Shown here: piece by piece, positions 46,301-62,755 of the stretch
Position numbering within the stretch: position 1 is the stretch's first letter
How the letters are laid out: every line of letters begins with the position of its first letter
NCBI GenBank assembly: GCA_028693085.1
Contig: JAQUWC010000003.1
Span: forward strand, 1-62,755
Source: Bacteroidales bacterium
GTDB taxonomy: Bacteria; Bacteroidota; Bacteroidia; Bacteroidales; WCHB1-69
Reading direction: 5' to 3'
DNA: 62,755 bases
Position numbers and translations under genes: made by a program
Notes under the pieces: model-generated
Seen by the model: the letters and a program-made list of their open reading frames with translations, nothing else
Database searches by the model: none
Told to the model about the DNA's origin: nothing

Positions 46301-47975
46301 CTTCTGGGAGCAAGATTTACAACCGGATATTATTCCGGTATATGGAAACGCAACCTTGCATTTTAATTCCGATTTATCGGAAGGTGAATCGGCCAATGCA
46401 GTCTTACATGCATTCGATCTCCAAGGTTGCTTGATGCCAACACTTGAATTTTGGTTTGCTCATGATAATACAAATCCAAGCGATTCAGATAAGGTAGTGG
46501 TGAAAATATCCACAAATGGTGGGAATACTTATTATCCCATAGCTACTGTTTATCGCTATAATGCTTTGTTTACAACACCGGGATGGCAACACTATGAAAT
46601 CGATTTGTCCGCGTATAGTTCCGAATCTTGTGTGAAGATAGCCTTTGAAGCCCATAGCGAAGGAGGAGGAGATATGTCGATAGATCGTATATTGATATCT
46701 GCCGAACAAGAAATGAGTGTTGAACTCATAATACCTCAACTTAAAGATATGGTAGCATGCGATTTGGATCAAAAAGAAATCAAAGTTCGGATAACAAATA
46801 ATACCATCACTCCCGTTGATTTTGATCAACAACTATCCTTGTTAACGCTTGAGGCTTCTGGTGCGCAAACGGCAACTTATGTAGATACTCTAAGCGGCCA
46901 AATTCCTGCCTATACAAGCAGTGAGTTTATCATCGACAATCAATTCGACTTTACATTAGCAGGAATCTACGATTTTAAGGCTTATATCAACCATATTGAT
47001 GTAAATACACTCAATGATACATCCATTGCCGGCATCACCATTATGCCTGATGTTAGTTTAGTGTCAATTGATAGTATTGGTGAAAAAGCCATCAATCAAT
47101 CCGTTTATTTGAGTGTAGAAATCAGTAATACAGGTAATATTGCCATTCAGCAAATTCCATTACATCTTCAAATTGATGGTGTTGTTGATGTTTACGATAC
47201 AGCCGATGTGCTATTAGCTGCTGGTGAAGATACTGTTTATACCTTGAAAAATGCCTATAAGGTTCCTATTGAACCTACCTATCAGTTGATGATAGCCGCT
47301 GATTTGGATTGTGATATAGATGCTTTCAATGATAGCTTAAACATGGAAGGAAAAGTTAGTAAACCTACATTGAAAGTGACTAATATATTGAAACCTAATA
47401 AAGATGTTTGTGATAAAGGGTTAACCGAAATATTCCCGCAAATAAGCATTCACAACAGCGGAAATCCTGAAACCGACGTGGTGGTGTATTTTATCGCTGA
47501 TAAAAACGACAGCTTGATTGCATCATTCGTAGATACCGTCGCTTTGATTACAAACGGAAACAATAATTATAATTTTAAAGAATCTTATTTTGTGCCCAAC
47601 TGGGAAACCAATACTACCTATAATGTAAAAGCCTATATTTATTCTCCGACCTATGCCTTAGTACAAACGGCATGTGTGATTTTCAATGATGTGTCGATTG
47701 CCCTTGCAGATGAAACATCTTTGAATCTCGGACAAAATATACCCAATCCGGCGCAATCAACAACGAGTATTCCTTTTTATATTCCTTTAGAAGGTAATGT
47801 GTTGTTTACCATTACGTCCGTTAGTGGTCAAACATTATATACTGAAAACTTAGAGGTTACCGCAGGAAGTCATATGCTTGAAATCAACATAGATATGTTG
47901 GCAAATGGTATTTATTATTATAGTATGCAATACAAAGGTCAACGATTGATTAAGAAAATGACCATTCAAAAATAA
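40386..47975 (+). CDS. giant T9SS-secreted modular surface protein, paralog 2 (2529 aa)
   Basis: It has a signal peptide (MRKFIVLFSLMLTVWGGYSQ). The N-terminal jelly-roll domain is homologous to that of paralog 1 (FNHICKV, GWLIDDF). It is followed by 4 tandem tri-domain modules, the shared C-terminal cassette and a type A CTD. The true start may be at 40419 or 40425. Confidence 0.92.
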   Translation: MENKIKYLIKKMTMRKFIVLFSLMLTVWGGYSQYTTVANETFGSIPAGWSVTPAGSWTLENHLYVSDSTSVLGYVPNSQGDSAVLISPFYDFQNYSFILLRFNHICKVASSDICKIYVQENHTGAKWTEIPSSCYQGLDKSAYQQSRFSQLSYATWMPNDSLAIPTNGWWKTESFDVSNEVSYAQVRFKFVITRGSGIATQFAYGWLIDDFELIASQYEIKPPIIEDLSMLGDTVYNTGPFNIKVRILPQTMHGIVKPVYLTLKYEHPNLTTIYDTIPMTMLAGDTMFLATIPQKIAGTTVSYQVYAYDTVGNDASIRSSFYVKRAGGGGVTGYVIVGNGTVTESYIPFYRFYDYSWSRALYLANELSINSGGGLISHIAYNVSSAGASAPNQFCYFKAVDDVNISNTNYLDPIADGATLVWTGSFNPVLGWNDITLDHNFLLPPGKNLLVYWSNHADNYTTSTTFFATSTSPIYLAVYKYQDGSFPAVSGTLYYNRPNTRFNIISGTDDTNSVGLYDVLSPLDSVVAAPGHQVPVVVEIKNKGIGDLDSCDINWSLNGVLQPTYAWKGYLPWDFNGIDTIGWYTPSVNLYDTLVIWVSNPNGQYDSTTYDDTLMLVSFGVTGLNMAYVSYLTDTVYNTGPFDIQAVISSRTGIPVPTPIYLHVTYLYDSVTTYDTILMNYTLNDTFVARIPQHVFGTDISYSVTIQDAVGNLVSITDGFYVKRMAGGSSTGYVIVGTGTNTQTYAPFYKWYDYSWSRMLYLASELSPTSGGGMITKLAWHVSTTGTSANNQTCYFKEVTDIDISNSTYVDPLTSGATLVWSGTFNPSSTGWIEITLDNSFILTPNKNLLIFWENRDGNYASPYADWTSTSTSPTYMTVYDYQDASFPTSSGSLQYDRPNARFYLIGNEEDSNSVALYSIDYPIGSVLATPNGDSVGVKVSIKNKGLKNLTSCNISWALNGVFKGSKQWTGNLTEDFNDTITIGYYMPRACMTDEIVAWVSMPNGVTDSTTYDDTLSISVYGEAAVIATLSGPMDTVYSTGPYAINAKLISLTSLAIDTNVQLYVSYTYSGNTVYDTITMQNNGTDSIFTTILSQQAYGSYVTYLITVTDSLGNYISVDKWFYVKRPNIYNVPDPDSVLVTQPLNGGVFVIPFDCRLPISWSRVIYTKNELGISDTGAVLNWIAWQAYNSSSYVYATTRTNVSVYLKDIDDTEISITDPNYIDPVLDGATLVFNGTMHLSGVLSAWEKVEFISPFFVPANKNIKVYVIDQHGTGGNTFAWTYYQGSGNTVYGGAMTTGTLNTYKPWTSFGFTCWPTDSDGVAAYALTSPASTVQAGIQSQVTAVIKNKGWNNLTSCDIDWTVNGVAQTTYHWTGDLFEDFVDTVTLGSYLPNPANYDEIVVWVSNPNGKADVSNNDDTLKLSVYAQAALIAEYISPTPSDTIYQTGPFEIVAHIKSLTSVSIATPIMYLSYTYNNVTTYDTVTMTTLILDSLYKVDIAQQPFGTYVTYSVSLTDSLGNVVTIADWFYIKRLSGGANTEYVIVGTATTTAYMLPMDMFYNYSWTRQLYLANELSPSSSGGLITKLAWQYAYGTPYTYSNQLCYMEAVDASVTSITSNAYVNPASVNASLVWSGTISLSQGWVEITLDQPFMLPPGKNLIVHWHHNNGSYAGSAYVFNYTATSNNTAVYCRSDGGFPSGNTGTLTTNRPNARFYIIGGGNDTNSVGFVNVLSPVDTIPAYQSIPIQVVIKNKGLHNLMSCNIDWTLNGVSQPTYNWTGNLMEDFTDTVILDYFTPIQDKDYEFTFRVSMPSNAYDSTTYDDTLSCVSFAQYDGYNLSMDKFISPFNNAYEVCYNKTAEVKIRLKNTGNYAILLSNNPLTLYYNVSGPVNFQTYRVITQGVIPVGTRDFVVDSLLDILFPGTYHIEVISQCGLDTITFDDTLRMQYEVKRILLPYDNDFSATLTDIDFNSTSDTVFWEQDLQPDIIPVYGNATLHFNSDLSEGESANAVLHAFDLQGCLMPTLEFWFAHDNTNPSDSDKVVVKISTNGGNTYYPIATVYRYNALFTTPGWQHYEIDLSAYSSESCVKIAFEAHSEGGGDMSIDRILISAEQEMSVELIIPQLKDMVACDLDQKEIKVRITNNTITPVDFDQQLSLLTLEASGAQTATYVDTLSGQIPAYTSSEFIIDNQFDFTLAGIYDFKAYINHIDVNTLNDTSIAGITIMPDVSLVSIDSIGEKAINQSVYLSVEISNTGNIAIQQIPLHLQIDGVVDVYDTADVLLAAGEDTVYTLKNAYKVPIEPTYQLMIAADLDCDIDAFNDSLNMEGKVSKPTLKVTNILKPNKDVCDKGLTEIFPQISIHNSGNPETDVVVYFIADKNDSLIASFVDTVALITNGNNNYNFKESYFVPNWETNTTYNVKAYIYSPTYALVQTACVIFNDVSIALADETSLNLGQNIPNPAQSTTSIPFYIPLEGNVLFTITSVSGQTLYTENLEVTAGSHMLEINIDMLANGIYYYSMQYKGQRLIKKMTIQK
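41040..45870 (+). repeat. 4 in-frame tandem ~1.2-kb coding modules (Ig-like + GTGT/YSWSR domain + CARDB-like)
   Basis: The equivalent Asp codons of the DT(V/I)Y(N/S/Q)TGP(F/Y) motif are at 41082, 42285, 43488 and 44703, giving periods of 1203, 1203 and 1215 nt. The copies are diverged and share motifs such as FYVKR, YVIVGTGT, YSWSR.LYLA.EL and RPNARFY. Confidence 0.85.
47724..47972 (+). other. T9SS type A C-terminal sorting domain of paralog 2
   Basis: The sequence is NLGQNIPNPAQSTTSIPFYIP...GIYYYSMQYKGQRLIKKMTIQK. Confidence 0.85.
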
Positions 47976-47987
47976 AAATGTAAAAAA

Positions 47988-48018
47988 GTGAGGGTTTCAT
48001 TTTGAAACCTTCACTTTT
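47988..48018 (+). terminator. Rho-independent terminator between giant genes 2 and 3
   Basis: The sequence gtgagggtttc-atttt-gaaaccttcac forms an 11-bp stem with one G-U pair and is followed by tttt. Confidence 0.7.
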
Positions 48019-48053
48019 AAAAAAAGTTAATTAATAATTAAATCAATATAAAG

Positions 48054-51000
48054 ATGAAAAATATGTTAAGAGTTTTATCAGGGATAATGTTTATATGTGC
48101 ATTGTCTTCGAATATTGTTACAGCACAAAACCTAATTACCGTTGGCACTGGGACTAATACGTATGCTTATGCCCCGGCTTATTCTTTGTATAATTACAGT
48201 TTTTCACGTATGTTGTATCTTTCCTCTGATTTACAAGCTTTATCTAGTGGAGGAAAAATAACGCACATTGCTTTTTATATCAGTACCGCTCAGAGTGGAT
48301 ATACTTTAAACAATCAAACTGTTTACATGCGTGGTACGACTGTTGCGTCGGAAAATACCGGATACATTGATCCAACCGTTACGTCCAATGGCTGTACACA
48401 AGTATGGACGGGTAATCTAAATGTGTCAAACACCGGATGGGTTACCATTCCGTTGAGCACTCCTTTTACTTTACCGGCAGGACAAAACTTGGAGATATTT
48501 TGGAATAATATGCATGGAAGCTGGTTTTCTACTGTATATTGGCAATCAACCGGTGTAAGTTATAATGCTGTTTCCAGGGGTTATTCCGATAATAGTTTTG
48601 CGTCTGCAACTACTTCCAGTTTAGCCACAGCTACGGAACGTCCGAATATTCAAATTACTTTTCTGCCTTCAGGTCGTACAGCTGCTGTAACGGAAATTGT
48701 ATCTCCCAGGTCTTCAATTATGTTAGGCGGACTCTTAACAGCGCAAGCGAATATCGCCAATTTAGGGACAGATACCATTACTTCCTGCCGAATCAATTGG
48801 TCGGTTAATAATGTATTATATCCTCCCGTCTATGATTCTACGCTGCTTCTTGCAGGAGCGGCTCCAACAAGCATTACCTTAGGTAATTATATGTGTGATT
48901 CTGATCAGTTTAATAACATTACCGTATGGATAGACCAAGCTATGCCCTATGATTCCGCTCAAGTGGATGATACCTTGTCATTCGATTTTTATGCTTGTTC
49001 CTATCAATTTAACGGAGTTTATACCGTAGGAGGGCCTACCGCCGATTATGCAACTTTAGGAGAAGTACTTATTCATCTAACTAATTGTGGTGTTACAGGA
49101 CCCACTACTTTTATATTAAATACAGGAGTGTATAATCAACCCATAGTCCTTTCCGGTTCCATACCGGGATTAAGCGAAATCAACACCGTAACTTTTACTT
49201 CGGCGACACAAGATGCGGATAGTGTCCTAATTTATGCCGTTGGAACTACAGTACAATTAAACGCGGCTAAACATCTTAGATTTTCTTATTTAACATTAGG
49301 AAATACTTCTATTAATTCGACCTACGGGGTTGAATTTAACAATGGAGCAAAAGATATTGATTTTTACGGATGTAAGATTAATTCCTATGTTTTTGCTACT
49401 TCTTCCTCTTATGCTCCTGTATATTACTATGGGGCTTCAGGATCTGGGTATAAGTTAGAAGACGTTACTTTTATCAATAATACCTTAGACGGAGGATATG
49501 CAAGCATGTATTTGTATTATTCCGGTTCAGGAAGTGGCACTGACATGAGTAGTATGGTAATTGATAGCAATGTAATGACCAATGCTTATTATTATGGAGT
49601 GTATAATTATTACTATACGTATTGTTCCAGCTTTTCTCATAATGTGATAAGTATGCGAGCAAGTGCAACGACGAATTATGGGATGTATTTTGGCGGATCT
49701 TATAATACCTTGGATAGGATGGAAGGAAATAAAGTACGTTTTAGAAATACAGGTTCTCGATATGGGATATATTTTGGGTCATACTTAAACCGCAGTGAAA
49801 GTTATAATGCTTTCGGGCCGGCTTATATAGTTAACAATGAGATTTTAAGTGATGGAGGATCTACAAATTACGGGATTTATTTAGGGAGTTATCCCAATGC
49901 TTATCTAGTATATAATTCGGTTTATGTGGCTGGAAGCGGAACCTCTTATGCTCTTTATTTTCCAACCATGAATTCTACCTATTCCTTAACTGTTAAAAAC
50001 AATATGTTTATTGCAGCAGGTAGCGGAACTCCTTATCCTCTCTATAGTAGCTCTATAGATTATGTAAAGCCGTATAACGGAACCATATTAGATTATAATA
50101 ATTATTACGGATCCAAAAATTCTATCGCTTATATTGGAAATGCAGTCTCTGATTTGCAAAGCATGCAAACCCTTACCGAGCAAGATGTACATTCTCAAAA
50201 TGTATATCCTAATTTTGTCAATCTAAGTCAAAGTTTACATACAGATGGTAGTATGATGATTGTTGAATCAGATGTGGAAACTAAATTTGATGTTGAAGGT
50301 GATAAAAGGGTGATATACACAAATATGGGTTGTTATAATGACTATGTAATATCATTAAATAATGATGTTACTATATCTAATTTACTATCCCCATTGGATT
50401 GGCAAGCTCCTTCAACAAATATAGCGTTAGACATTAAAATAACGAATAAAGCGACCGATACATTGAAAAATGTGAGAATTTATTGGTCAATCAATAATTC
50501 GCCGGTTAATTTTATTAATTATAACTGTAATTTAGCATGGTATGAAGAAAGTGAAGCCATTACTTTAGACAGCATTGTATTACAAAGCGGTGTTAATTCT
50601 TTATTAGTATATACAACGCTACCCAACGGTTTAAGTGATGCCAATGTATTTAACGATACCTTGCAGGCAGAGATTATCAGCTGTGTTCCTTTAAGTGGAA
50701 ATTATACGGTAGGTAGTCAACTGGCTGATTTTGTCACCTTAGATGAAGCCATAGATTATCTTAATAGTTGTGGCGTAAGTGGACCAACAACACTTTTACT
50801 TCATGCAGGAGATTATGTACAGACGATGACGCTGACAGGGAGTATTCCCGGGCTAAGTGCATCTAATGCCGTAACCTTTACTTCACTTGCACAAGATCCG
50901 GATAGTGTTAAGATTTATACCAACAGTACAGCTTTGGAATTGGTAGAAGCCAAACACCTTCGCTTTTCATACCTGACTTTGGGCTCAACAAGTAGTAAAT

Positions 51001-54000
51001 CTACTTATGGAGTAGAGTTTATCGATGGAGCTTTGGATGTACATTTCTATGCTTGTAATATTTATGCCAATTTATTGTCCACATCTTCTTCGTATGTGCC
51101 GGTTTATTATTCTGGAAGCAATGGTTCAGGAAAACGATTGGAAAATGTTAGTTTTGTTAAAAATAAATTGGAGGGTGGCTATGCCAGTTTCTTTTTATAT
51201 TATCCCGGTTCCGGTGAAGATACCAGTATGAGTCAGATTGTTATCGATAGTAATATCATGTTGAATGCATACTATTACGGTGTACGAGTTTATTCCTACG
51301 GATATTTTCCAAGTATATCGTATAATACAATATCGATGCGTAATAGCTCTACAACCAATTATGTAATATGTTTCGAAGGAAGTTATAATACCATCGATAA
51401 CATGATAGGAAATAAAATCCGTTTTGGCACAACCTCAAGTAGATACGGCATTTATATTAGTAGTGCTAATTTGAACGAAAGTCCTTTATACAAAGCATCC
51501 GGACCAGCCTTAATTGCTAATAATGAAATTATAAGTACAGGAGGTTCGTCGAATTATGGTATTTATTTTGCAAACACAAACGTAAATGCAAAGGTGCTTC
51601 ATAATTCAATCTTATTGTCAGGTACTTCTACCAGTTATGCAATTCGTATCCCAACGATGAGTGCCGAATATGCCTTAAATATTAAAAATAATGTGTTTGT
51701 TACAACTTCTACCGGGACAGCTTATCCTTTGTATGCTTCTTCCGCAAATTATGTGAAACAATCCTATGGAACTACTTTAGATTATAATAATTATTATAGT
51801 ACGGGTGAATACCTGGCTTATATTTCCGGAACAAAATCAAGCTTACTCGATATACAACTAGCCAGTGAACAAGATGCACAGTCCATCAGTCAAAATCCCG
51901 ATTTCGTGAATCCATCGCTTGATTTACATACTTCTAGTACGGCTATGTTAGTACCACTTGATTCAACGATGATGTATGATATTGATAGAAATCAAAGATT
52001 AATGTTTACAAACATGGGTTGTTATCATGATTTTGTAGCTAATAATTTGGATGTGTCCTTACAGACTCTTGTGTCTCCTACTGAAACATCACCTACTAAT
52101 CAAAATACAGCCTTAGAGGTTATGATTAATAATAGTGGTATAGATACATTACGGTCCGTACGTTTTTATTGGTCAGTCAATCAATCTGCCATTGATTCTA
52201 TGGATTATGCTTGTTTGATTTCTCCTCTGCAAAACAGTGAAGTTGTTCTACTTGATTCCGTTATGTTGCATGGTGGAGAGAATACAATCAAGGTTTATAC
52301 AGCTTATCCCAACGGTTTAGTAGATGCTAATACCGTCAATGATACCTTATTAGTACATATTGCTGCTTGTGATACCATGTTGAATGGTGAATATATAGTT
52401 GGAACAGGCGGCGATTTTGCCAATGTAGAAAAAGCTTTCAACACATTGATGCGTTGTGGTATTAATGGGCCGGTAGAATTAAAATGCATGCCGTTTACTT
52501 CAGGTAGTTTCAAACTGGATGTGAATGTCCCGGGTGCTGATTCGATCAATACGGTTACGTTTAGCTCTTTAAGTGGAAATCCTTCCGATGTAAAGATTGT
52601 TAGCACTGATGGAAATGCCTTAACATTAGATGGTGTAAGCAATTATATATTCAAAAATATTAGCATTGATGCCACTGCAGGTACCAATGGTGTGGAATTT
52701 TTAAATACCTGTAGTAATATTCTGTTCTACGGATGCAATATTATGGCTAATCCAACGACAACATCCTCTTCTTATACGGCAGTACGTTATTATCAAGCAT
52801 CCGGTAGCACTACGTATTTATCCAATATAAGTTTTATAAAAAATAAAATAAGCGGTGGTTATCATAATATGTATTTCTATTATGCTTGTGGCAGTTCTTC
52901 CAAAATGTCAGAATCTCTAATTCGTATCGACAGCAATGAGTTGACAGATGCTTATTATTACGGTATTTATGCTTATTATTACGGGAATTATAAAAGTGTT
53001 TCATATAATACAATAACTTCTCGAGCCACCAGCAGTACATTTTATGCCATTTATTTTAATAGGTATAATACCGTTCAAGATGGAGTGATTGGCAACCGCA
53101 TTTTCTTACAAAATACATCCACCGGATATGGCATTCGTACCTATTATATCAATAGAAGCACATCCTATGCAGCTCAAGGCAATGCTTTGATTGCAAATAA
53201 TGAAGTGATAGGCAATGCCGGAGGATCGACCTATGGGATATATACTCAATATTCTAATGCCGATTTCTATAATAACTCCATATATTTAACGGGTAGTAGT
53301 TCATGTTACGGTTTATACATTAGTTCAACCAGCTCAACCTATAGTATGAACTTTTTAAATAATCTATTTATTACTACTACATCCGGTACAGGATATCCGA
53401 TCTATACCGGTACGGCAAATTATGTTACAACTAGCTATGGTACGGTCTTAGATTATAACAATTATTATAGTACAGGTAGTTATGTTGGATATATTAGCGG
53501 TACAAAAACTAGTTTATCCGCTTTAAAATCTGCTACCCTACAAGATACAAACTCTGTAAGTATTCAGCCGCAATTCCTTGGCATTAACAATGGATTAGAG
53601 TTGTTAAATTACAGTGGATTGAGTTGCTTGAAGTTGGATGGAGTTAGCCATGACATCCGTAATGTAGAAAGAGATTCCTTGACTTTTATGGGATGCTATA
53701 CTCCAAATAGTTTGGATGTTGCATTAGCCCCTAGTACCTTAACTCCCGATTTAGCCAATGTACATCAAGGAATAATAGTTGCGGTAAAACTACAAAATCC
53801 AGGAAAAACTACATTAACAACATCCACGATTACCTTATCCGTTGATGGAGTCGTTACGAAAGTAATCCCATGGTCAGATAGTTTGGTACCTGGAGCAGAA
53901 ATACCACTCTACTTAGATACTATGAATGTAAATGCAGGTTCCAACGATTTAAGAATATGGATTTCTAATCCAAATGGCAGTGTTGATTTGAACAACGACA

Positions 54001-57000
54001 ATGACACCTTACAATATAATATTTACGGTTGTGATACGCTATTGAATGGCCAATATACGATAGGAGTCAGTGGAGCAGATTATGTGAGTTTTCAAGACGC
54101 GCTACAAGCAATGATACGATGCGGTATTAACGGACCGGTAACTTTTAGGGTGAATGATGGTGTATACAATGAAAATCTATACATAAATACAGCTTTAATT
54201 CTCGGTTCAAATTCACAAAATACCATTTCGTTTGTTTCGACAAGCGGTAATGCGGCTAATGTAATACTAGGAAATCATCAGGCATTAGGAGCAAGTGCTT
54301 TGGTACTTGATGGAGCCAGCAACCTTATTTTTAAAGATATAACGATAGGATTAAACAGCGAAAATACCGGTGTTGCAGTTGAATTCTTAGGGATGTGCGA
54401 GAATATTGAATTTAATTCCTGTATCATTCAAACCTATGATCAAGCAACCTCAAACACGTATTGCGGCGTAAAATATTATAATTCCAGCTCATCATCAAAT
54501 TATTTGAAAAATGTAAAATTTGTACATAATCATATTGATGGTGGATATTATAATTTCTGGTTTTATTATTCCGCCGGCACTTCGTCGAATATGGGAAATA
54601 TGTCGGTAATCATCGATAGCAATACTTTGAGTAATGCTTATTATGCCGGTTTTTATACATATTATAACGGAAATTACCCCAGTGTTTCTTATAATACTAT
54701 TACTTCCCGTACCAATGAAAATGTGGGAACAGATTGGTATGGAATATATACCTATTATTACACCAACATTGAAAATATTGTAGGAAATAAAATTCAAAAT
54801 ATCAATGTACGCATTGCTCAACCGAGAGGTATTTATATTCATTACTATTTCAATTATACCTCTTACAGTGGTTCCGGTCAAGGATTAATTGCTAATAATG
54901 AGATTTTGTTATATGGTGCTAACGCCACTAATACATATCAAAACTTTGCCGGATTATATATTTATTATCCTTATTCGAGTACAAAGATATTACACAATAG
55001 TATTTATTTGTATGGAGCAGATCCCGCTACTTTAACAGGTGCCGCTTTATATGCGTATAATACAAGTACATCATATCTATTAAAAATACAAAATAATGTT
55101 TTTAGTACAGCGATAGCGAATAATGCAAATACGTGTTTAATTCCTTATTACATAAGTTCGTTAACCTATGCAAGGCCTAATTATGTAAATAGTGATTATA
55201 ATAATTACTACAACGCATATAATCAAAATGTGGCATATGCTGGGGAAGAATATACATTGGTAGATTTACGCGCAGCAAATATGCAAGATGCACATTCTGT
55301 CCAATACAATCCCGGATTTGCTAATTTACCTTTTTCTTTGATGCCTACTCATTGGACGATTTGTCCAAAAGAGGATCTTGTTTCGTTCGATATGTTAGGG
55401 AATGCCCGTGTAGTACTTACTTATAGTGGATGTTATCATGCCAATTATAGTAGCGATGCCGGTATAGTCGAGTTTATGAATATAGGCGAAAAAAATACGG
55501 CCGGACTTAATCCGTTAGATGTTCGCCTTGTGAATTATGGCAGTGCTGTCTTAAACAGCGTAACGATTCGTGCCTCTGTGGATGGTGTCCTAATACCTGC
55601 CGTTAACTTGACGGGCCTTGCATTAGTGCAAAATCAAGATACTATTATACATATTGGAAACTTTACTTCTGTATTGAATCATACAAACACTATCAAAGCA
55701 TGGACATCCAATCCTAACGGCATGCTCGATCAAAACAATTTGAACGATAGCATGTCCATTACTACCAAAGGGTGTGTTGAAGTTTTATCGGGGGTATATG
55801 ATATTGCAGGAGGAAACAATGATTTTGCCACTATTCAAGATGCTTTAAGTGCCTTAGAAGATTGTGGTATTGCAGGTCCTGTTGTCTTACGTCTGGCTAA
55901 CGGTATCTATCCAGATTTAAATAACGTAGGAACATTTACCGGAACCAACGAAACAAATACAATAACCTTTACTTCCCTTAGCGGAAATGCCGATGACGTA
56001 GTTATTGGCAGTCCTACTGATGTAGCTTTGTCACTCTTCGATGCCGGTCATTTACGTTTTGAAAATATTAGTATAGGGAATAGTTCATCTACTTATGGCG
56101 TTCAATTTATAAATCACAACGAAGATATAGTTTTTTATCAATGTAATATTTATTCTGCTCCGGGTATGAGTAGTACCAGTTATGCCGGAATTTATTACTA
56201 TAATTCTTCCGGCTCTACCAATACCTTAAAGAATGTGCGTATTGTAAAAAATAATATTTCGGGAGGGTATGCTAACATCTATTTCTATTATCCGGGAGGA
56301 AGTTCATCCAATATGACCAATATGTCGGTTACCATCGATAGCAATATTATGACCGATGCATATACGTATGGTCTCTATTCTTATTATAATGCAATGTATG
56401 AAAGCATTTCTTATAATACCATCATTACAGCTTCCGCTAGTACAACTCAATATGGTCTTTATTTAAATTATTACAATACAATTGTACATGGGATTAATGC
56501 AAACCGTCTGCGCATGCAATCTACTTCATCTGCATATGGAATAAGATGCTATTATATAAATAATCCTTCCTATGGAGCTCAATCTAATGCGCTAATTTCT
56601 AATAATGAGATTGTATGTCCGGAAGGGTCTTCGACCAAATACGGAATTTACACCTATTATACGAATGCTGATTTTTATAATAATTCCGTTTATTTAGCCG
56701 GAACCAGTACCAATTACGGTTTCTATATCAGTACAACCAGTTCCTCCTATTCCATGAATATTAAAAATAATATCTTCTATACGGCAACCACAGGTACAGG
56801 CTATCCGATTTATACCGGTACAGCCAATTATGCTAAAACAACCTATGGTACCGTCATAGATTATAATAATTATTATAGTACAGGTACATACGTAGGATAT
56901 ATAGCAGGTACTAAATCTACAATTTTCGATTTGCGAGCATCTACAGGCCAAGACCAAAATTCAGTTAGTACAAATGTAAGTTTTATGGATATTACGAAGG

Positions 57001-60000
57001 ATTTGCGATTACTTGCTTATTCCGGACTCAGCTGTCCGAAAATAGTGGATGAAGATATCGATGGGAAAAGCAGAAATGCTTCTACCTTTATGGGATGTTA
57101 TGAATCCGATTCCTTAGATGCTGCAATTTCTATGGGTGATATTAGTCATAATAGCACACAACTTCCATTGCCGGTATATGCAGTATTAACCAATAAGGGC
57201 TTAACAACTTTAAATAATGCCATACTTACTTGGTCGTTTAAAGATACGGTACGCATGTCGACACCTTGGACTGGTTCCTTAGATCAAGGAGAGACAGATA
57301 CCGTACTTTTGGGGAATGTAAGTTTAACCTACGGATCAGTTAATAATCTAAAATTATGGGTAAGTCTCCCCAATGGAGCTACAGATAATAATGTGGAAAA
57401 TGATACCGTAAAAGATGTAGTGTATGGATGTTATGGTCCCTTGAGTGGAGTATATACCATTGGAGGTCCAACTGCCGATTTTGCTACGATAGCCGACGCA
57501 TTGGAACCTATTACATATTGCGGTATTGTTGGACCCGTTACCTTTAGCCTTAACGATGGGACCTTTAATGAAAATGTGGTTATCAATATTCCTATCCCTG
57601 GTGCCAGTATACTCAATACAATTACCTTTACATCTACTAGCGGCAACCCGGCCAACGTGGTTATTGGTAGTAATCTTGAAAAAGCGGGTACGGCTTTGTT
57701 GATAGAGGGAATGAACTATTTGAATTTTACCAATATTACCATAGGACTTAACTCTGAATATACCGCTACAGCTGTAGAACTTAAAGGTATGTGCGAAAAT
57801 ATCCTATTTACAGGATGTAGAATACAATCCTATGACCAAGCCAATAGTACGATGTATTGTGGAGTTAAGTACCAAAGCTATAGTGGTGCTACAAATTACT
57901 TAAAGAATGTGAAATTTATTGGAAATCACATTGATGGGGGATATTATAATTTCTATTTATACTATTCTGCAGGTTCCTCTACTAATATGGAAGCTAGCGC
58001 TATGTCGGTTACTATCGATAGCAATGTCTTAAGCAATGCTTATTATGCCGGTGTTTATTCTTATTATTACGCTAACTATCCGAGTATTTCTTACAACACT
58101 ATTTTGGCACGTACCTCCGGAGTAGTCAATGCTGATTGGTATGGAATTTATACCTATTACTATCACAATGTAGAAAGAATGGTAAACAATAAAATCAAAA
58201 GTACTCATGCAAACATTACCAATCCACGCGGAATTTATATATATTACTACTTTAATTATTCTTCCTATGGTGGACTTGGCAGAGGGTTGATTGCTAACAA
58301 CGAAATTATTCTCCAAGGAGCTAATATGACAAGCGATTTCAATGCATTTACAGGGATATATATCTATTATCCTTATTCCAATATGCAGATTCTACACAAT
58401 TCTATTTATTTATATGGTACTGATCCCAATACGATGGCCGGTTGTGGAATTTATGCATATAACACAACGACATCCTACCAAATAACCATTAAGAATAACG
58501 ATATAGCCACCTATAAAGACGGCAGCAGTTTGTGCTATTTATATCCCTATTACGTTACTTCAGCTACCTATGCTGATGCTTCTTATATTGTTACAGATTA
58601 TAATAATTATTACAATGATAAGAATGCAAACATTGCATTTACTGGAGTAGAGCACACCTTAGCCAGCTTAAAGGTTGCTAATTTGCAAGATGAAAATTCT
58701 TTGAGTATCAATCCCGGATTTGGTTTGAATCCTACGAATCTTGTCCCTCAAAATTGGTCAACCTGTTTGATTGTGGATGAAGTTAACAATGATATCCATG
58801 GTGATCTACGATTGGGAAGAATTACCTATAAGGGTTGTTATACCGCTATTTTTGGCAATGATGCAGGAGTTACTGAATTTGTAGGTTTAGGCCAAAGAGT
58901 TACCGCCGGTTCCAACAATATTCAAGTTCGGATATTTAATTTCGGAAGTACTACCTTGCAAAGTGTCAATGTAACGGTGGAAGTTGATGGGATAGTACAA
59001 CCCACGATGAATCTGACAGGACTTAATTTAGCAAAATATCAAGATACGGTTATAACTGTAGGAACTTTCATGGCCTATGTGGATGCTATAAACGATTTAA
59101 GAGCATGGACATCCAATCCCAATGGAATTGTCGACGATAATTTCATCAACGATACCATGGCAATGCAAACTACCGGATGTTTTTTGGTGTTAGCCGGTGT
59201 GTATGATGTAGGAGGTGGCAATAACAACTTTGCCAGTTTAGAAGATGCTATGGAGGTATTAGAAAATTGTGGAGTGTCAGGTCCTGTTATATTACGCATA
59301 GCTGCCGGAAACTATCCTAACTTAGATACTTTGGGGGCTTATTTCGGAACCAGCGATGTTAATACGGTTACCTTTACTTCCTTAACCGGAAATGCAAATA
59401 GTGTTGTTTTAGGCGATACTATTAATACCGCTCTTACATTTGTTGATGCAAAACACCTGCGTTTTGAAAATGTAACTATTGGGAATACTTTATCCATGCG
59501 CGGGGTTGAATTTGTAAATACCAACGAAGATATTTCTTTCTATCAATGCAATATTTTGGCTACACCTGCGATGAACAGCTCGGACTATGCTCCTATTTAT
59601 TACTATAACTCTTCTAGTTCTTCCCATACCTTAAAAAATATTCGTATTGTTAAAAATAATATATACGGCGGATATGCCAATATTTACTTTTATTATCCGG
59701 GAGGTAGCTCATCAAATATGACAAATATGTCGGTTACAATTGACAGCAATACCATGACTAATGCTTATTATGCAGGATTGTATTCTTATTACTATTCTTA
59801 TTACAAAAGTGTGTCATATAATACCATTGTAACCGCTGCAGTAAGCGCTACACAATATGGTTTGTATGTGTATTATTACAACACTGTTGAAAATGGGATT
59901 ATCGGAAATCGTATACATATACAATCTACATCCGGAGGCAATGGTATTCGTTCGTATTATACCAACAGAAGTACGGCTTATGGTGCAAGAGGAAATGCTT

Positions 60001-62687
60001 TGATAGCGAATAATGAAATCATTAAGTTGCAAGGCTCTTCTACTTCCTATGGCTTTTATCAATATTATGGGAATGTTGATTTTATCAATAATTCCATATA
60101 TATAGCCGGCACCAGCACCTGTTATGGTATTTATGCAAGCACCATGAGTTCTACTTATAGCCGAAGATTCCTGAATAATAATATTTATACCAATACGACC
60201 TCATCTTCCAATTATCCTATCTATTATTCCAGTACAAATTATGCCCTTCCTTCCTATGGAAACATAGCTGATTATAATAATTACTATGGAACAGGTGCAT
60301 ATGTTGGTTATGTAGGCGGAGCAAAGACAACAATAGCTGATTTACGTCAAGCTACAACCCAAGATGCGCACTCCATCAGTATTCAACAACAATTTGTTGA
60401 TCCTACACAAAATCTGGAATTGTTGGAATATAGCGGCATGATTTGTAACATGCATACGTCTGTCTTATCAGATATTAATGGTAAGAGTCGTACGCGTATT
60501 ACGCCTATGGGAGCTTACTCCGTACATATTTATGAGGGCTACGATTTAGGCCTCAGTGCTATCGTTGAACCGGTAAATACTACTGATGTGTTCTGTTATC
60601 AAGATTTTGCTTCTGTTCGTGTGGAAATGCAAAACAATGGTAGCTATCCTATCAACTTCTCGGCTCAACCCGTTACCCTGCATTTGGATGTTAGTGGTGC
60701 CGTTACCTATCAAAAAGATACTATGTTATTGATGGGTGGATTAACACAAACTGAAAAAAGTATTTATACTTTGACAAACCTATTGCCTGTTAGTCAGAAC
60801 GGTAATTACCACATCAAAGTATCGTTGGCTTTAGATGCAGATACCCTTCATTTTGATGATACCATACAAGCTATTTATGTCATCGATAAAATTGTGTTAC
60901 CCTACGAAGTAAACTTCGATTCAGTTCCTAAAGGATTAGTGTTTAAACAAATAAACGGCACATCCGGCTGGACAGTTGAATCGGGCGATGGTATGAATCC
61001 TACCATTACTCCTTCACACGGACAAGGTCGTTTGCAATTTGCTTCGGCTACCGATAGAGGTTCTTTGGCTTCGGTAACCTTGCAACCCATCAATTTAAGA
61101 GGGACGGTTCAACCTAAATTAGAATTTTGGTATGCACACGATAATGCACCGGGAAGAGACTATACCGATGTGAAGATTTCGGTTGACGGTGGATTTACCT
61201 ATCAAACGATATTAAACGTACAACGTTCCAATTCTGCCTATACAACACCTACCTTTGTACGTCATGAAGTCGATTTATCACCCTATACTTCTTACTCTTG
61301 CGTTATACTAGGCTTTGAAGCAGGAAGCTTCGCCGGAGGTAATCAAAACATCGATAGCATTTCTATCAGTTCCTTGCAAGACCTATTGGTTGGATTTGAT
61401 TTGATTCCACAAAATGATTTCATCGCATGTGAATTAGATAATAAAACCTTAGCCGTTACCTTAAGCAACTTAACTACGCAAGATTTCTTGTTCGAAAGAA
61501 ATCCAAGCGAGTTGACGGTAGAAGTAAGCGGTGCCATTACTACTACCTATACTTATCCTTTAGTTAGTGGTAAAGTAACAGGAAGTTCTATCTTGACCGT
61601 TGTGCTGGATACTAATTTTGATTTCTCCATCAACGGAACCTATGATTTTAAAGCCTATATCCGAAAAGCAGACGACAATAAACTGAACGATACTGCCGTT
61701 ACATCACGTTTAATCAATGTTGATCTCGATATGTTGAGCATTGAACCGATTGGCGATAAAAGGATTGGCGATAGAATCTATCCGACACTTAGTTTTATGA
61801 ATACAGGTAATATGCCGATTAAAAACATTCCTTTGCATTTACAAATCAATAAAGCGGCTCATATAAGAGAAAGTGTCGATACCTTGTTGAATCCGGGTGA
61901 TACAATAAGCTATACCTTTATCACACCATCCTATGTGCCGACGGTTACTGAAACACAGCCTTTCTATTTACTCGAAATCGAATCAGAGTTAAGCTGTGAT
62001 GGTAATCAAGTCAATGATTTGGTGAGCGGTTATTATTCCGTGGTGTTCGATGAATATATTGATTTAGTCATTACTTCCGTTGAGAAACCCGATCCAAATG
62101 AGTGCGATTCAGGGTTAACTACCGTATATCCTATATTAAATATCAAGAATATAGGTACAGGTATTGCCAATAATATCATTCTTTATGTTACGGTCGACAG
62201 TGCAGGCACCATTCTAAAAAGTTATTCCGAAGAAGTGAACCTTATTGCAAACGGCGATAGCTTATTACATAGCTGTGTTACCGGATACAATGTGCCTAAT
62301 TTAAACGGTCAATATAAAGTAACTCTCTTTGTTAGCGTAGCAGATGAATCCGATCCCGTGAATAATACGGTTGATATCATGGCTTGTGCCATCTTAAACG
62401 ATGTAGGTGTCGATGCCTATAAGACTGTGGATTGGTCGATGGATCAAAACATCCCCAACCCGGCTTCTGCTAGTACACGCATCACATATCACATACCGCA
62501 AGATGGCTTGGTACGTTTCAGCTTAACGACTATTACGGGACAGCTAATCTATCGTCAAGATATTCCATCCGCAGCCGGATCACATGCTATTGATTTCGAT
62601 ACGCAACATCTGGCTGGTGGTATCTATTATTATAGCATGGAATATCAAGGCCAACGCATCGTGAAGAAGATGACCATACAGAAATAA
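48054..62687 (+). CDS. giant T9SS-secreted modular surface protein, paralog 3 (4877 aa)
   Basis: It has a signal peptide (MKNMLRVLSGIMFICALSSNIVTAQ). The domain order is one GTGT/YSFSR domain, a CARDB-like domain, 7 tandem beta-helix plus CARDB modules, the shared C-terminal cassette and a type A CTD. It is a single uninterrupted ORF of 14,634 nt. Confidence 0.92.
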   Translation: MKNMLRVLSGIMFICALSSNIVTAQNLITVGTGTNTYAYAPAYSLYNYSFSRMLYLSSDLQALSSGGKITHIAFYISTAQSGYTLNNQTVYMRGTTVASENTGYIDPTVTSNGCTQVWTGNLNVSNTGWVTIPLSTPFTLPAGQNLEIFWNNMHGSWFSTVYWQSTGVSYNAVSRGYSDNSFASATTSSLATATERPNIQITFLPSGRTAAVTEIVSPRSSIMLGGLLTAQANIANLGTDTITSCRINWSVNNVLYPPVYDSTLLLAGAAPTSITLGNYMCDSDQFNNITVWIDQAMPYDSAQVDDTLSFDFYACSYQFNGVYTVGGPTADYATLGEVLIHLTNCGVTGPTTFILNTGVYNQPIVLSGSIPGLSEINTVTFTSATQDADSVLIYAVGTTVQLNAAKHLRFSYLTLGNTSINSTYGVEFNNGAKDIDFYGCKINSYVFATSSSYAPVYYYGASGSGYKLEDVTFINNTLDGGYASMYLYYSGSGSGTDMSSMVIDSNVMTNAYYYGVYNYYYTYCSSFSHNVISMRASATTNYGMYFGGSYNTLDRMEGNKVRFRNTGSRYGIYFGSYLNRSESYNAFGPAYIVNNEILSDGGSTNYGIYLGSYPNAYLVYNSVYVAGSGTSYALYFPTMNSTYSLTVKNNMFIAAGSGTPYPLYSSSIDYVKPYNGTILDYNNYYGSKNSIAYIGNAVSDLQSMQTLTEQDVHSQNVYPNFVNLSQSLHTDGSMMIVESDVETKFDVEGDKRVIYTNMGCYNDYVISLNNDVTISNLLSPLDWQAPSTNIALDIKITNKATDTLKNVRIYWSINNSPVNFINYNCNLAWYEESEAITLDSIVLQSGVNSLLVYTTLPNGLSDANVFNDTLQAEIISCVPLSGNYTVGSQLADFVTLDEAIDYLNSCGVSGPTTLLLHAGDYVQTMTLTGSIPGLSASNAVTFTSLAQDPDSVKIYTNSTALELVEAKHLRFSYLTLGSTSSKSTYGVEFIDGALDVHFYACNIYANLLSTSSSYVPVYYSGSNGSGKRLENVSFVKNKLEGGYASFFLYYPGSGEDTSMSQIVIDSNIMLNAYYYGVRVYSYGYFPSISYNTISMRNSSTTNYVICFEGSYNTIDNMIGNKIRFGTTSSRYGIYISSANLNESPLYKASGPALIANNEIISTGGSSNYGIYFANTNVNAKVLHNSILLSGTSTSYAIRIPTMSAEYALNIKNNVFVTTSTGTAYPLYASSANYVKQSYGTTLDYNNYYSTGEYLAYISGTKSSLLDIQLASEQDAQSISQNPDFVNPSLDLHTSSTAMLVPLDSTMMYDIDRNQRLMFTNMGCYHDFVANNLDVSLQTLVSPTETSPTNQNTALEVMINNSGIDTLRSVRFYWSVNQSAIDSMDYACLISPLQNSEVVLLDSVMLHGGENTIKVYTAYPNGLVDANTVNDTLLVHIAACDTMLNGEYIVGTGGDFANVEKAFNTLMRCGINGPVELKCMPFTSGSFKLDVNVPGADSINTVTFSSLSGNPSDVKIVSTDGNALTLDGVSNYIFKNISIDATAGTNGVEFLNTCSNILFYGCNIMANPTTTSSSYTAVRYYQASGSTTYLSNISFIKNKISGGYHNMYFYYACGSSSKMSESLIRIDSNELTDAYYYGIYAYYYGNYKSVSYNTITSRATSSTFYAIYFNRYNTVQDGVIGNRIFLQNTSTGYGIRTYYINRSTSYAAQGNALIANNEVIGNAGGSTYGIYTQYSNADFYNNSIYLTGSSSCYGLYISSTSSTYSMNFLNNLFITTTSGTGYPIYTGTANYVTTSYGTVLDYNNYYSTGSYVGYISGTKTSLSALKSATLQDTNSVSIQPQFLGINNGLELLNYSGLSCLKLDGVSHDIRNVERDSLTFMGCYTPNSLDVALAPSTLTPDLANVHQGIIVAVKLQNPGKTTLTTSTITLSVDGVVTKVIPWSDSLVPGAEIPLYLDTMNVNAGSNDLRIWISNPNGSVDLNNDNDTLQYNIYGCDTLLNGQYTIGVSGADYVSFQDALQAMIRCGINGPVTFRVNDGVYNENLYINTALILGSNSQNTISFVSTSGNAANVILGNHQALGASALVLDGASNLIFKDITIGLNSENTGVAVEFLGMCENIEFNSCIIQTYDQATSNTYCGVKYYNSSSSSNYLKNVKFVHNHIDGGYYNFWFYYSAGTSSNMGNMSVIIDSNTLSNAYYAGFYTYYNGNYPSVSYNTITSRTNENVGTDWYGIYTYYYTNIENIVGNKIQNINVRIAQPRGIYIHYYFNYTSYSGSGQGLIANNEILLYGANATNTYQNFAGLYIYYPYSSTKILHNSIYLYGADPATLTGAALYAYNTSTSYLLKIQNNVFSTAIANNANTCLIPYYISSLTYARPNYVNSDYNNYYNAYNQNVAYAGEEYTLVDLRAANMQDAHSVQYNPGFANLPFSLMPTHWTICPKEDLVSFDMLGNARVVLTYSGCYHANYSSDAGIVEFMNIGEKNTAGLNPLDVRLVNYGSAVLNSVTIRASVDGVLIPAVNLTGLALVQNQDTIIHIGNFTSVLNHTNTIKAWTSNPNGMLDQNNLNDSMSITTKGCVEVLSGVYDIAGGNNDFATIQDALSALEDCGIAGPVVLRLANGIYPDLNNVGTFTGTNETNTITFTSLSGNADDVVIGSPTDVALSLFDAGHLRFENISIGNSSSTYGVQFINHNEDIVFYQCNIYSAPGMSSTSYAGIYYYNSSGSTNTLKNVRIVKNNISGGYANIYFYYPGGSSSNMTNMSVTIDSNIMTDAYTYGLYSYYNAMYESISYNTIITASASTTQYGLYLNYYNTIVHGINANRLRMQSTSSAYGIRCYYINNPSYGAQSNALISNNEIVCPEGSSTKYGIYTYYTNADFYNNSVYLAGTSTNYGFYISTTSSSYSMNIKNNIFYTATTGTGYPIYTGTANYAKTTYGTVIDYNNYYSTGTYVGYIAGTKSTIFDLRASTGQDQNSVSTNVSFMDITKDLRLLAYSGLSCPKIVDEDIDGKSRNASTFMGCYESDSLDAAISMGDISHNSTQLPLPVYAVLTNKGLTTLNNAILTWSFKDTVRMSTPWTGSLDQGETDTVLLGNVSLTYGSVNNLKLWVSLPNGATDNNVENDTVKDVVYGCYGPLSGVYTIGGPTADFATIADALEPITYCGIVGPVTFSLNDGTFNENVVINIPIPGASILNTITFTSTSGNPANVVIGSNLEKAGTALLIEGMNYLNFTNITIGLNSEYTATAVELKGMCENILFTGCRIQSYDQANSTMYCGVKYQSYSGATNYLKNVKFIGNHIDGGYYNFYLYYSAGSSTNMEASAMSVTIDSNVLSNAYYAGVYSYYYANYPSISYNTILARTSGVVNADWYGIYTYYYHNVERMVNNKIKSTHANITNPRGIYIYYYFNYSSYGGLGRGLIANNEIILQGANMTSDFNAFTGIYIYYPYSNMQILHNSIYLYGTDPNTMAGCGIYAYNTTTSYQITIKNNDIATYKDGSSLCYLYPYYVTSATYADASYIVTDYNNYYNDKNANIAFTGVEHTLASLKVANLQDENSLSINPGFGLNPTNLVPQNWSTCLIVDEVNNDIHGDLRLGRITYKGCYTAIFGNDAGVTEFVGLGQRVTAGSNNIQVRIFNFGSTTLQSVNVTVEVDGIVQPTMNLTGLNLAKYQDTVITVGTFMAYVDAINDLRAWTSNPNGIVDDNFINDTMAMQTTGCFLVLAGVYDVGGGNNNFASLEDAMEVLENCGVSGPVILRIAAGNYPNLDTLGAYFGTSDVNTVTFTSLTGNANSVVLGDTINTALTFVDAKHLRFENVTIGNTLSMRGVEFVNTNEDISFYQCNILATPAMNSSDYAPIYYYNSSSSSHTLKNIRIVKNNIYGGYANIYFYYPGGSSSNMTNMSVTIDSNTMTNAYYAGLYSYYYSYYKSVSYNTIVTAAVSATQYGLYVYYYNTVENGIIGNRIHIQSTSGGNGIRSYYTNRSTAYGARGNALIANNEIIKLQGSSTSYGFYQYYGNVDFINNSIYIAGTSTCYGIYASTMSSTYSRRFLNNNIYTNTTSSSNYPIYYSSTNYALPSYGNIADYNNYYGTGAYVGYVGGAKTTIADLRQATTQDAHSISIQQQFVDPTQNLELLEYSGMICNMHTSVLSDINGKSRTRITPMGAYSVHIYEGYDLGLSAIVEPVNTTDVFCYQDFASVRVEMQNNGSYPINFSAQPVTLHLDVSGAVTYQKDTMLLMGGLTQTEKSIYTLTNLLPVSQNGNYHIKVSLALDADTLHFDDTIQAIYVIDKIVLPYEVNFDSVPKGLVFKQINGTSGWTVESGDGMNPTITPSHGQGRLQFASATDRGSLASVTLQPINLRGTVQPKLEFWYAHDNAPGRDYTDVKISVDGGFTYQTILNVQRSNSAYTTPTFVRHEVDLSPYTSYSCVILGFEAGSFAGGNQNIDSISISSLQDLLVGFDLIPQNDFIACELDNKTLAVTLSNLTTQDFLFERNPSELTVEVSGAITTTYTYPLVSGKVTGSSILTVVLDTNFDFSINGTYDFKAYIRKADDNKLNDTAVTSRLINVDLDMLSIEPIGDKRIGDRIYPTLSFMNTGNMPIKNIPLHLQINKAAHIRESVDTLLNPGDTISYTFITPSYVPTVTETQPFYLLEIESELSCDGNQVNDLVSGYYSVVFDEYIDLVITSVEKPDPNECDSGLTTVYPILNIKNIGTGIANNIILYVTVDSAGTILKSYSEEVNLIANGDSLLHSCVTGYNVPNLNGQYKVTLFVSVADESDPVNNTVDIMACAILNDVGVDAYKTVDWSMDQNIPNPASASTRITYHIPQDGLVRFSLTTITGQLIYRQDIPSAAGSHAIDFDTQHLAGGIYYYSMEYQGQRIVKKMTIQK
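48996..60510 (+). repeat. 7 in-frame tandem ~1.7-kb coding modules (Tyr/Asn-rich parallel beta-helix + CARDB-like)
   Basis: The conserved module-initial Cys codons (C..L.G.Y.VGG...DF.T) are at 48996, 50682, 52368, 54030, 55773, 57429 and 59178. The periods are 1686, 1686, 1662, 1743, 1656 and 1749 nt. Modules 1-2, modules 3/5/7 and modules 4/6 form three subtypes. Confidence 0.85.
62436..62684 (+). other. T9SS type A C-terminal sorting domain of paralog 3
   Basis: The sequence is SMDQNIPNPASASTRITYHIP...GIYYYSMEYQGQRIVKKMTIQK. Confidence 0.85.
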
Positions 62688-62722
62688 ACAGTTTCATTGT
62701 ACATTTAGTTATTAATAAGGGA

Positions 62723-62755
62723 AGAAGTTGTGTAAAAGCAGCTTCTTTCTTTTTT
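62723..62755 (+). terminator. probable Rho-independent terminator after giant gene 3
   Basis: The sequence agaagttg-tgtaaaag-cagcttct forms an 8-bp stem with one G-U pair and is followed by ttctttttt at the window end. Confidence 0.5.

Follow-up and report, generated by a model that had tools for sequence, protein, structure and literature searches.

We analysed a stretch of 62,755 nucleotides (nt), hereafter the window, which is contig JAQUWC010000003.1 (assembly GCA_028693085.1) of an uncultured Bacteroidales bacterium that lives in anaerobic digesters and landfills. Gene 3 of this window (48054-62687, plus strand) is one open frame of 4,877 codons encoding a 4,877-amino-acid (aa) protein with seven tandem modules, M1 to M7. 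According to a structural model, each module is a right-handed parallel beta-helix of ~440 aa with conserved Cys caps, followed by a CARDB-like immunoglobulin (Ig) domain of ~115 aa, which we refer to as the tail. The module copies are ancient and under purifying selection, and M5 is a chimera, of which the N-terminal half (N-half) is M7-like and the C-terminal half (C-half) and tail are M3-like. A single ancient unequal crossover offers the best account of the repeat pattern and is the inferred last step in the growth of the array. Judged from its sequence, the protein is most likely an extended surface fibre or adhesin anchored by the type IX secretion system, abbreviated T9SS. We consider this explanation as a whole, i.e. 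the architecture of a giant surface protein, its mode of action as a fibre and its origin through a single crossover, to be probably correct.

With a profile derived from the modules, seven full-length copies and no more were detected in gene 3, at E-values of about 1e-233 to 1e-248 each. The modules are 552-583 aa long, i.e. 1,656-1,749 nt, and the whole protein contains 8.7% Tyr and 9.9% Asn. Direct repeats in gene 3 are spaced 1.67-1.74 kb or 3.40-3.41 kb (3402-3411 nt) apart; Tandem Repeats Finder detected no repeats in the array, since their period is longer than 500 nt and the divergence among the copies is too great. The protein sequences of M4 and M6 are 55% identical, those of M5 and M7 53%, M1 and M2 52%, M3 and M5 49%, and M3 and M7 45%, with 33-41% for the remaining pairs; at the DNA level, identities are 57-62% within module groups and 48-51% between groups. 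In a maximum-likelihood tree (support given as bootstrap/SH-aLRT, the latter being the Shimodaira-Hasegawa-like approximate likelihood ratio test), M1+M2 and M4+M6 were each recovered with 100/100 and M5+M7 with 81/89, and M3 took no settled position. Support for M4 and M6 as sisters was 97/96 once modules of other species were included.

Residues C1, G7, Y9, G35 and the Cys of the F(Y).C.I motif are invariant across the modules. The motif MGCY is present in M1-M3 and M5, and its counterparts are SGCY in M4, KGCY in M6 and MGAY in M7. The sequence AKHLRFSYLTLG is common to M1 and M2, and a run of 28 aa, GGYANIYFYYPGGSSSNMTNMSVTIDSN, is identical between M5 and M7. Type-specific cysteines, at positions 131, 145 and 369 in M4 and M6 and at about position 421 in M3, M5 and M7, support the typing of the modules, whose order is c-c-b-a-b-a-b. 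All of this agrees with a first-pass annotation of the window that had proposed seven tandem modules within one gene, paired modules 1/2, 4/6 and 5/7, quoted motifs that are all present in the modules, noted a two-module periodicity of 3.4 kb over single-module duplication, and mentioned a single module in gene 1, which is real and spans about aa 424-950. The range given there for the array ended at position 60510, because the tail of M7 is of a different kind: in place of MGCY it has MGAY, which marks the end of the M7 helix, and it is similar to the tail of the gene 1 module.

The chimeric nature of M5 is evident from several analyses. Sliding identity showed that the first half of M5 is nearest to M7 and the remainder nearest to M3. 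Informative sites, defined as positions where two of M3, M5 and M7 agree, are distributed in a ratio (M5=M7):(M5=M3) of 67:17 to the left of alignment column 269 and of 28:55 to its right. The maximum-chi-square breakpoint is at aa 255 of M5, near nt 56,535, and its contrast was reached in 0/1000 permutations. The plausible interval for the breakpoint covers alignment columns 241-351 (about 56460-56770 in M5) and includes LIANNEI, where the DNA is conserved best across all modules (repeat families D7 and D15). We also built trees of module segments that included foreign modules and compared their topologies by the approximately unbiased (AU) test. In the N-half tree, M5+M7 were grouped with 100/100 support beside d-type modules and M3 was placed with terminal-type modules; M3+M5 (p 0.0016) and M3+M5+M7 (p 0.015) were rejected. 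In the tree of the C-half plus tail, M3 and M5 are sisters (92/77), M7 falls with the terminal modules of other species (98/97), and M5+M7 was rejected (p 1.9e-5). For the C-half of the helix alone, M3, M5 and M7 are most alike one another (54-64%). Hence, of the two groupings that had been expected in a module tree, 4/6 was recovered with full support, and a 3/5/7 clade exists only in the C-terminal half of the helix.

We propose the following history for the array. One c module would have been duplicated in this lineage, giving M1 and M2. Separately, in a b1-a-b2 array, b2 and b1 would have undergone one unequal, in-frame crossover near LIANNEI, generating the product b1-a-(b2N/b1C)-a-b2, corresponding to M3-M4-M5-M6-M7. 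One crossover explains the M4/M6, M5N/M7N and M3C/M5C pairs with a single event. The duplicated two-module unit, which had been thought to be bounded by module edges with a clean b type, runs instead from the middle of M3 to the middle of M5. The duplicated parts are comparably diverged, with 59-64% aa identity in the helix halves; the nonsynonymous divergence (dN) is 0.24 for M5N/M7N, 0.29 for M3C/M5C, 0.31-0.44 for M4/M6 and 0.67 for the M3/M5 tails.

The age of the duplications can be read from their synonymous sites. Module pairs of the same type have a proportion of synonymous differences (pS) of 0.71-0.72 overall and of 0.65-0.79 per segment, which is saturated, and their dN is 0.37-0.41, with a ratio of nonsynonymous to synonymous divergence (dN/dS) of about 0.17. 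The suspicion that the copies are old and under selection was thus well founded. The 28-aa run that is identical between M5 and M7 differs at 14/84 nt. Recent gene conversion as the cause of this identity is therefore ruled out, and the run testifies to selection on the protein. The longest near-identical DNA between any two modules measures 20-29 nt at 90-95% identity.

Further information on timing came from the sister species "Bacteroidetes bacterium ADurb.Bin234". A contig of 6.5 kb of this organism (L002) contains the 3' end of the orthologous gene, with one partial and two full modules. These are 68%, 72% and 77% identical to M5, M6 and M7, respectively, and 50%, 54% and 51% identical to the paralogues M3, M4 and M5; the first tail on the contig is 63% identical to the M5 tail and 33% to that of M3. 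The one-to-one orthology with M5, M6 and M7 implies that the a-b-a-b array with the chimeric M5 tail already existed in the common ancestor, and that its order has been kept since. Both duplications would predate the saturation of synonymous sites, and the crossover would also predate the split from ADurb.Bin234, after which the array would have been stably inherited under purifying selection. When relatives of M1-M4 were sought among proteins, none turned up at 60-90% identity, which leaves the 5' half of the array without a near orthologue for comparison. ADurb.Bin234 has at least four separate genes with the same C-terminal cassette as gene 3, at 40-67% identity (contigs L002, L003, L009 and L010; MWCE01000007, -05, -226 and -08), from which it follows that the multi-gene family predates the split of the species.

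The array is stable, and nothing supports present-day recombinational length variation. A cluster at 90% identity contains six full-length sequences from separately assembled metagenome-assembled genomes (MAGs), among them MDD3690918.1, MFA7102239.1, MDD4043963.1, MDD4581093.1 and MDD2687010.1, which are 99.7-100% identical and have all seven modules at the same positions. The first-pass annotation had considered that the repeats could allow the length of the gene to vary between strains; no such variation was seen in the six strains, the order is conserved in the sister species, and a substrate for it is lacking, because no module pair shares long near-identical DNA. In addition, the gene is tiled colinearly and at flat depth by contigs of four independent run assemblies (landfill, anaerobic digester and biogas metagenomes, and a wastewater metatranscriptome), with single contig pieces covering 47500-55780, 55783-61658 and 52859-62660. 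Contig "joints" that might be taken for deletions were rejected, as their sides all measure less than 30 nt at 90% likeness and they come from other organisms or from paralogues.

Two other explanations of the repeats have to be weighed against the crossover. The window is a metagenome-assembled contig, and a repeat might have been collapsed or expanded in the metagenome bin. We give virtually no credence to such an artefact, since the modules differ at 38-52% of their nucleotides and are without long exact repeats, which leaves short-read assemblers nothing to collapse, and the six MAGs and four independently assembled runs agree in module order at flat depth. For practical purposes, an assembly artefact is excluded, as had been anticipated. 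It is also conceivable, but in our opinion improbable, that a clean a-b unit was duplicated at module edges on top of single-module duplication, with the likeness of M5 to M3 arising through later gene conversion and the repeats still being able to vary in length. The repeat spacings of 3.40-3.41 kb would fit such a history, and so would the whole-module trees, in which M4/M6 and M5/M7 pair, and the identity matrix, which gives the same pairs. However, M5 switches partner at about aa 255, where the ratio of informative sites changes from 67:17 to 28:55, and a pairing of M5 with M7 fails the AU test in the C-half plus tail, so that duplication at module edges requires a second event. Nor does any module pair share more than about 20-29 nt at 90-95% identity, and the order is the same in six strains and in the sister species.

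Some points nevertheless tell against the single crossover. The interval for the breakpoint extends over about 110 alignment columns, which is wide. The M3/M5 tails are 35-36% identical, versus 47% for the M4/M6 tails, and the duplicated block has therefore diverged unevenly. The sister-species contig is cut, so that the comparison covers only part of M5 up to M7. Finally, the crossover is one parsimonious history: duplication at module edges combined with gene conversion of half a module leaves the same pattern, although it needs two events.

The module is not restricted to gene 3. At E<=1e-3, the module profile matched 9,618 representatives of 50%-identity clusters, of which 3,437 are matched at E<=1e-30; many of the representatives reach lengths of 3,000-7,800 aa and were matched in as many as 17 stretches. 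Named relatives are from Bacteroidales, Lentimicrobiaceae and ADurb.Bin234 MAGs, and 98 long relatives have between 1 and 11 modules. Besides the ADurb.Bin234 fragment, the nearest relatives are about 42% identical and are Bacteroidales MAG proteins of 6,387, 4,036 and 3,162 aa. The proteins P0004 (10 modules), P0005 (6 modules) and P0130 (from ADurb.Bin234) exemplify this kind. They have in common with gene 3 the helix plus CARDB-like module of ~540-590 aa in 1-11 tandem copies, the C-terminal cassette and sorting domain, and segment types a, c, d and terminal. They differ in module order, which is a-d-c-terminal in the relatives versus c-c-b-a-b-a-b in gene 3, and P0004, P0005 and P0007 lack the N-terminal head domain found in gene 3. 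Such proteins are annotated as "right-handed parallel beta-helix repeat-containing" or "T9SS type A sorting domain-containing" and are uncharacterised Bacteroidales MAG proteins. A scan of contigs with the C-terminal cassette found it in 13 loci of other MAGs, at 31-67% identity.

In a joint tree of 49 modules, M4 and M6 belong to an a-type clade (support 100) with six foreign modules. In a more careful tree, in which they are sisters (97/96) inside the a-type clade (100/100), their common stem of 0.24 is short compared with the tips of 0.54-0.62, and the two are 54% alike, barely above the 45-53% of the foreign a modules. M1 and M2 group with P0005_m5 and P0006_m3, with P0005_m5 as the nearest foreign module of M1, and M3, M5 and M7 group with one module of P0008. 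The tail of M7 is 63-65% identical to that of the last module of P0004. The segment types are thus older than the species and are shared with proteins of other organisms, and modules are mosaics of ancient segment types. P0005 lies directly behind a gene encoding a 2,675-aa protein that is 49% identical to gene 2, the upstream neighbour of gene 3; it is therefore the positional counterpart of gene 3 in another species, with another module make-up. In its first 1,100 aa, this positional orthologue of gene 2 (L001, 1889-9916) is 49% identical to it, and one complete helix module is present at aa 1012-1572. The gene 2 of the window contains none, and modules thus also move in or out of the neighbouring paralogue.

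The structural assignment of the module was based on modelling. AlphaFold2 was applied to M5 using the eight-module alignment and gave a predicted local distance difference test score (pLDDT) of 78 and a predicted template modelling (TM) score of 0.76. Residues 1-440 of the model form a regular stack of short strands, of which residues 1-400 have a pLDDT mostly of 80-95 and about 45 short strands, and residues 466-531 form a beta sandwich of lower confidence (pLDDT 50-70). When the model was compared with the PDB using Foldseek, all matches with E<=0.001 were right-handed parallel beta-helices, namely GH136, a PL6 lyase, phage capsule depolymerases and pectin methylesterase, in line with the helix that the first-pass annotation had read in the module. 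Many homologues carry precomputed matches to PF13229 (Beta_helix), PF05048 (NosD), PF07705 and PF18962. PF13229 and PF05048 did not match the whole gene 3 protein or M1, M4 and M5, even at E<=5.

For the tails, the CARDB profile PF07705 has a gathering score of 22.7 bits. Of the eight tails, those of M2, M3 and M6 scored 16.7-18.6 bits over nearly the whole profile, with sub-threshold E-values of 0.0085, 0.0053 and 0.0022, respectively, and the other five were not matched. The homologous tail of gene 1 scored 31 bits and a cassette domain of gene 2 scored 42.6. The earlier label "CARDB-like" is therefore a fair one for the tails, rather than proven membership of the family. CARDB-like domain 0, ahead of M1, was matched by the tail part of the module profile and not by a Pfam search. 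For the head domain, which occurs once in gene 3 and four times in gene 2 according to alignment, AlphaFold2 gave an all-beta model with a pLDDT of 73; CBM32, PHR and chitosan-binding jelly rolls were matched weakly by the fold search, in no case with E<=0.001.

All three large plus-strand genes of the window, genes 1, 2 and 3, have like ends. They have in common a C-terminal cassette of ~600 aa and terminate in a type A T9SS sorting domain. TIGR04183 was reported for genes 1 and 2, which end colinearly with gene 3, and the NCBI name of the gene 3 protein is "T9SS type A sorting domain-containing protein". At the other end of the translation, a hydrophobic N-terminus, MKNMLRVLSGIMFICALSSNIVTAQ, is visible, in agreement with a probable Sec signal peptide (aa 1-24, MKNMLRVLSGIMFICALSSNIVTA). 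T9SS cargo with a type A sorting domain is processed by the PorU sortase and attached to anionic lipopolysaccharide (PMC8729774). The gene 3 protein would be exported by Sec and then by the T9SS, its sorting domain would be removed and the protein would be linked to anionic lipopolysaccharide. The C-terminal cassette common to genes 1-3 would form the membrane-proximal part, and the seven helices, rigid and with Ig domains linking them, would make up a rod that holds the head away from the cell, with the protein acting as an adhesin or glycan-binding fibre. With about 15 coils per helix at 4.8 Å, a helix measures about 7 nm, and an Ig domain measures about 4 nm. The rod may therefore be roughly 70-100 nm long.

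The main rival to the fibre or adhesin is that each beta-helix is catalytic, acting as a polysaccharide lyase, hydrolase or esterase, in which case the protein would be a surface-bound multi-enzyme working on several glycans and not a passive fibre. We regard this as possible, though not likely. The organism inhabits polymer-degrading digesters, and structurally the module comes closest to enzymes, namely GH136 lacto-N-biosidase, PL6 alginate lyase, phage capsule depolymerases and pectin methylesterases. Polar residues D189, N191, N277-N278-E279, D363, D394 and R434 (M5 numbering) are moreover invariant in all eight modules. However, these invariant residues are located in the repeated coil motifs IDSN, NNEI and DYNNYY, as is typical of structural Asn ladders and caps. 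The glycan-active enzymes concerned (PL6, 6qps; GH136, 6kqs; tailspike depolymerases, 9k4a and 6c72; pectin methylesterases, 1gq8) are of the same fold class (E 1.5e-4 to 6.6e-4), but their identity is 9-14% and their TM-score about 0.3, and searches of Pfam, NCBIfam and the PDB gave no match to an enzyme family by sequence. By TM-score, a beta-helix adhesin is about equal to them, namely PfbA of Streptococcus pneumoniae (PDB 4mr0; E 3.4e-3, TMq 0.35, TMt 0.41), although its E-value makes it a weaker match than the enzymes. PfbA is likewise a surface-displayed right-handed parallel beta-helix; it differs from gene 3 in having a single helix and a Gram-positive sortase anchor, without a tandem array or CARDB-like linkers, and no sequence similarity to gene 3 was detectable. 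SprB and RemA of Flavobacterium johnsoniae resemble gene 3 in being giant repetitive surface adhesins of Bacteroidota secreted by the T9SS, but they have type B sorting domains and other repeat units and move on the gliding machinery. Nothing in the gene 3 data indicates gliding.

The fibre interpretation has its weak sides as well. The Foldseek matches of M5, with TM-scores of about 0.3 and 8-14% identity, are informative at the level of the fold only, and searches of Pfam, NCBIfam and the PDB with single modules and with the eight-module profile gave no match for the helix by sequence. The sorting domain is borderline, as the PF18962 score was 27.4 bits when the C-terminal piece was searched and 25 bits for the full-length protein, against a cut-off of 27, and NCBIfam TIGR04183 was not reported for gene 3. 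A search of the literature found no description or characterised member of the module family.

The sequon for O-glycosylation in Bacteroidota is D-(S/T)-(A/I/L/V/M/T) (PMC8729774). The gene 3 protein contains 41 such sequons, versus 18.9 +/- 3.9 in shuffled sequences, and they cluster in the CARDB-like tails. A conserved sequon is present near the end (last ~10 codons) of all seven tails (DTL, DTL, DTL, DSM, DTV, DTM and DTL; for instance at 50655-50663, 54003-54011 and 57402-57410). Alternatively, this tail-end sequon could be a structural motif of the CARDB-like domain.

Table 1. Large genes of the window and features of gene 3.
Feature	Position	Strand	Remarks
Gene 1	24379-29097	+	1,572 aa
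Gene 2	40386-47975	+	2,529 aa
Gene 3, predicted giant T9SS cargo protein	48054-62687	+	single open reading frame; >=99.7% identical protein in six MAGs
Probable Sec signal peptide	48054-48125	+	read from sequence
N-terminal ~180-aa beta-sandwich "head" domain (predicted)	48126-48662	+	alignment; all-beta AlphaFold2 model
CARDB-like domain 0	48666-48995	+	module-profile tail positions 457-560, E 1.7e-9
Module 1 (type c)	48996-50681	+	helix to 50324, tail 50325-50681; profile, tree
Module 2 (type c)	50682-52367	+	tail 52014-52367; profile, tree
Module 3 ("b1")	52368-54029	+	terminal-module-type N-half, b-type C-half helix, internal-type tail 53688-54029; segment trees, AU tests
Module 4 (type a)	54030-55772	+	tail 55425-55772; tree
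Module 5 (chimera)	55773-57428	+	M7-like N-half to about 56534; M3-like C-half, tail 57090-57428
Module 6 (type a)	57429-59177	+	tail 58833-59177; identity, tree
Module 7 ("b2")	59178-60863	+	d-type N-half, b-type C-half helix, terminal-type tail 60507-60863 (MGAY...); segment trees, AU tests
Duplicated 3.4-kb block, first copy (M3 C-half and tail, M4, M5 N-half)	53127-56534	+	3,408 nt; breakpoint mapping
Duplicated 3.4-kb block, second copy (M5 C-half and tail, M6, M7 N-half)	56535-59939	+	3,405 nt; breakpoint mapping, repeat spacing
Rest of C-terminal cassette: jelly-roll/MAM-like domain and further CARDB-like domains	60864-62453	+	P0002 and gene 1 end colinearly with it
T9SS type A C-terminal sorting domain	62454-62678	+	PF18962 match

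With regard to the rest of the window, the module profile found one module in gene 1 and matched gene 2 with its tail part only. A 471-aa protein encoded at 37344-38759 on the plus strand, between the genes for D-Ala-D-Ala ligase and shikimate kinase, has a Pfam Beta_helix match (E 4e-8); it was not matched by the module profile and is therefore outside the family of the giant genes. In the last ~500 nt (62261-62755), which contain the sorting domain, the summed contig depth is 2- to 4-fold higher, and short contigs with loose ends are numerous. The conserved C-terminal domain of paralogues and of other Bacteroidales in the same samples is presumably behind this.

The organism is widespread. 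Its region 47500-62755 occurs in near-identical form, with >=97% of the sampled words, in metagenomes of more than 10 studies; these are from landfill, anaerobic digester, biogas, bioreactor, wastewater and some "soil" samples. Gene 3 also turns up in many metatranscriptomes. In metatranscriptome runs of at least six digester and sludge studies, 48-99% of the sampled M4-M5 words are present, and one run assembled 9.8 kb of gene 3. Gene 3 is thus transcribed in situ, with the caveat that DNA may have been carried over into the libraries.

These results settle that the sequence is real and remove the idea of ongoing variation in repeat length. In its repeat pattern, gene 3 keeps a clean natural record of the growth of giant modular surface proteins; the chimeric module produced by a single in-frame unequal crossover can still be mapped in it despite saturation of the synonymous sites. 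The gene 3 protein is an ordinary member of a very common, annotated but unstudied kind of protein, whose ~560-aa module has thousands of representatives and, in gene 3, escapes the beta-helix models of Pfam. Since gene 3 is transcribed in digesters and sludge, environments in which it matters to attach to particulate substrates, it is a reasonable first candidate for the characterisation of the family. More speculatively, and with no great likelihood, the helix plus CARDB-like module may define a very widespread and uncharacterised class of modular surface fibres in Bacteroidota, with 1-17 copies per protein and about 9,600 representatives of clusters. In that case, sub-module segments, and not whole modules, would be the units of exchange, and each diverged helix would have its own ligand specificity, so that the protein would be a polyvalent glycan-binding, possibly O-glycosylated "fishing rod". 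If true, this "fishing rod" would be important for the attachment to particles in anaerobic digesters.

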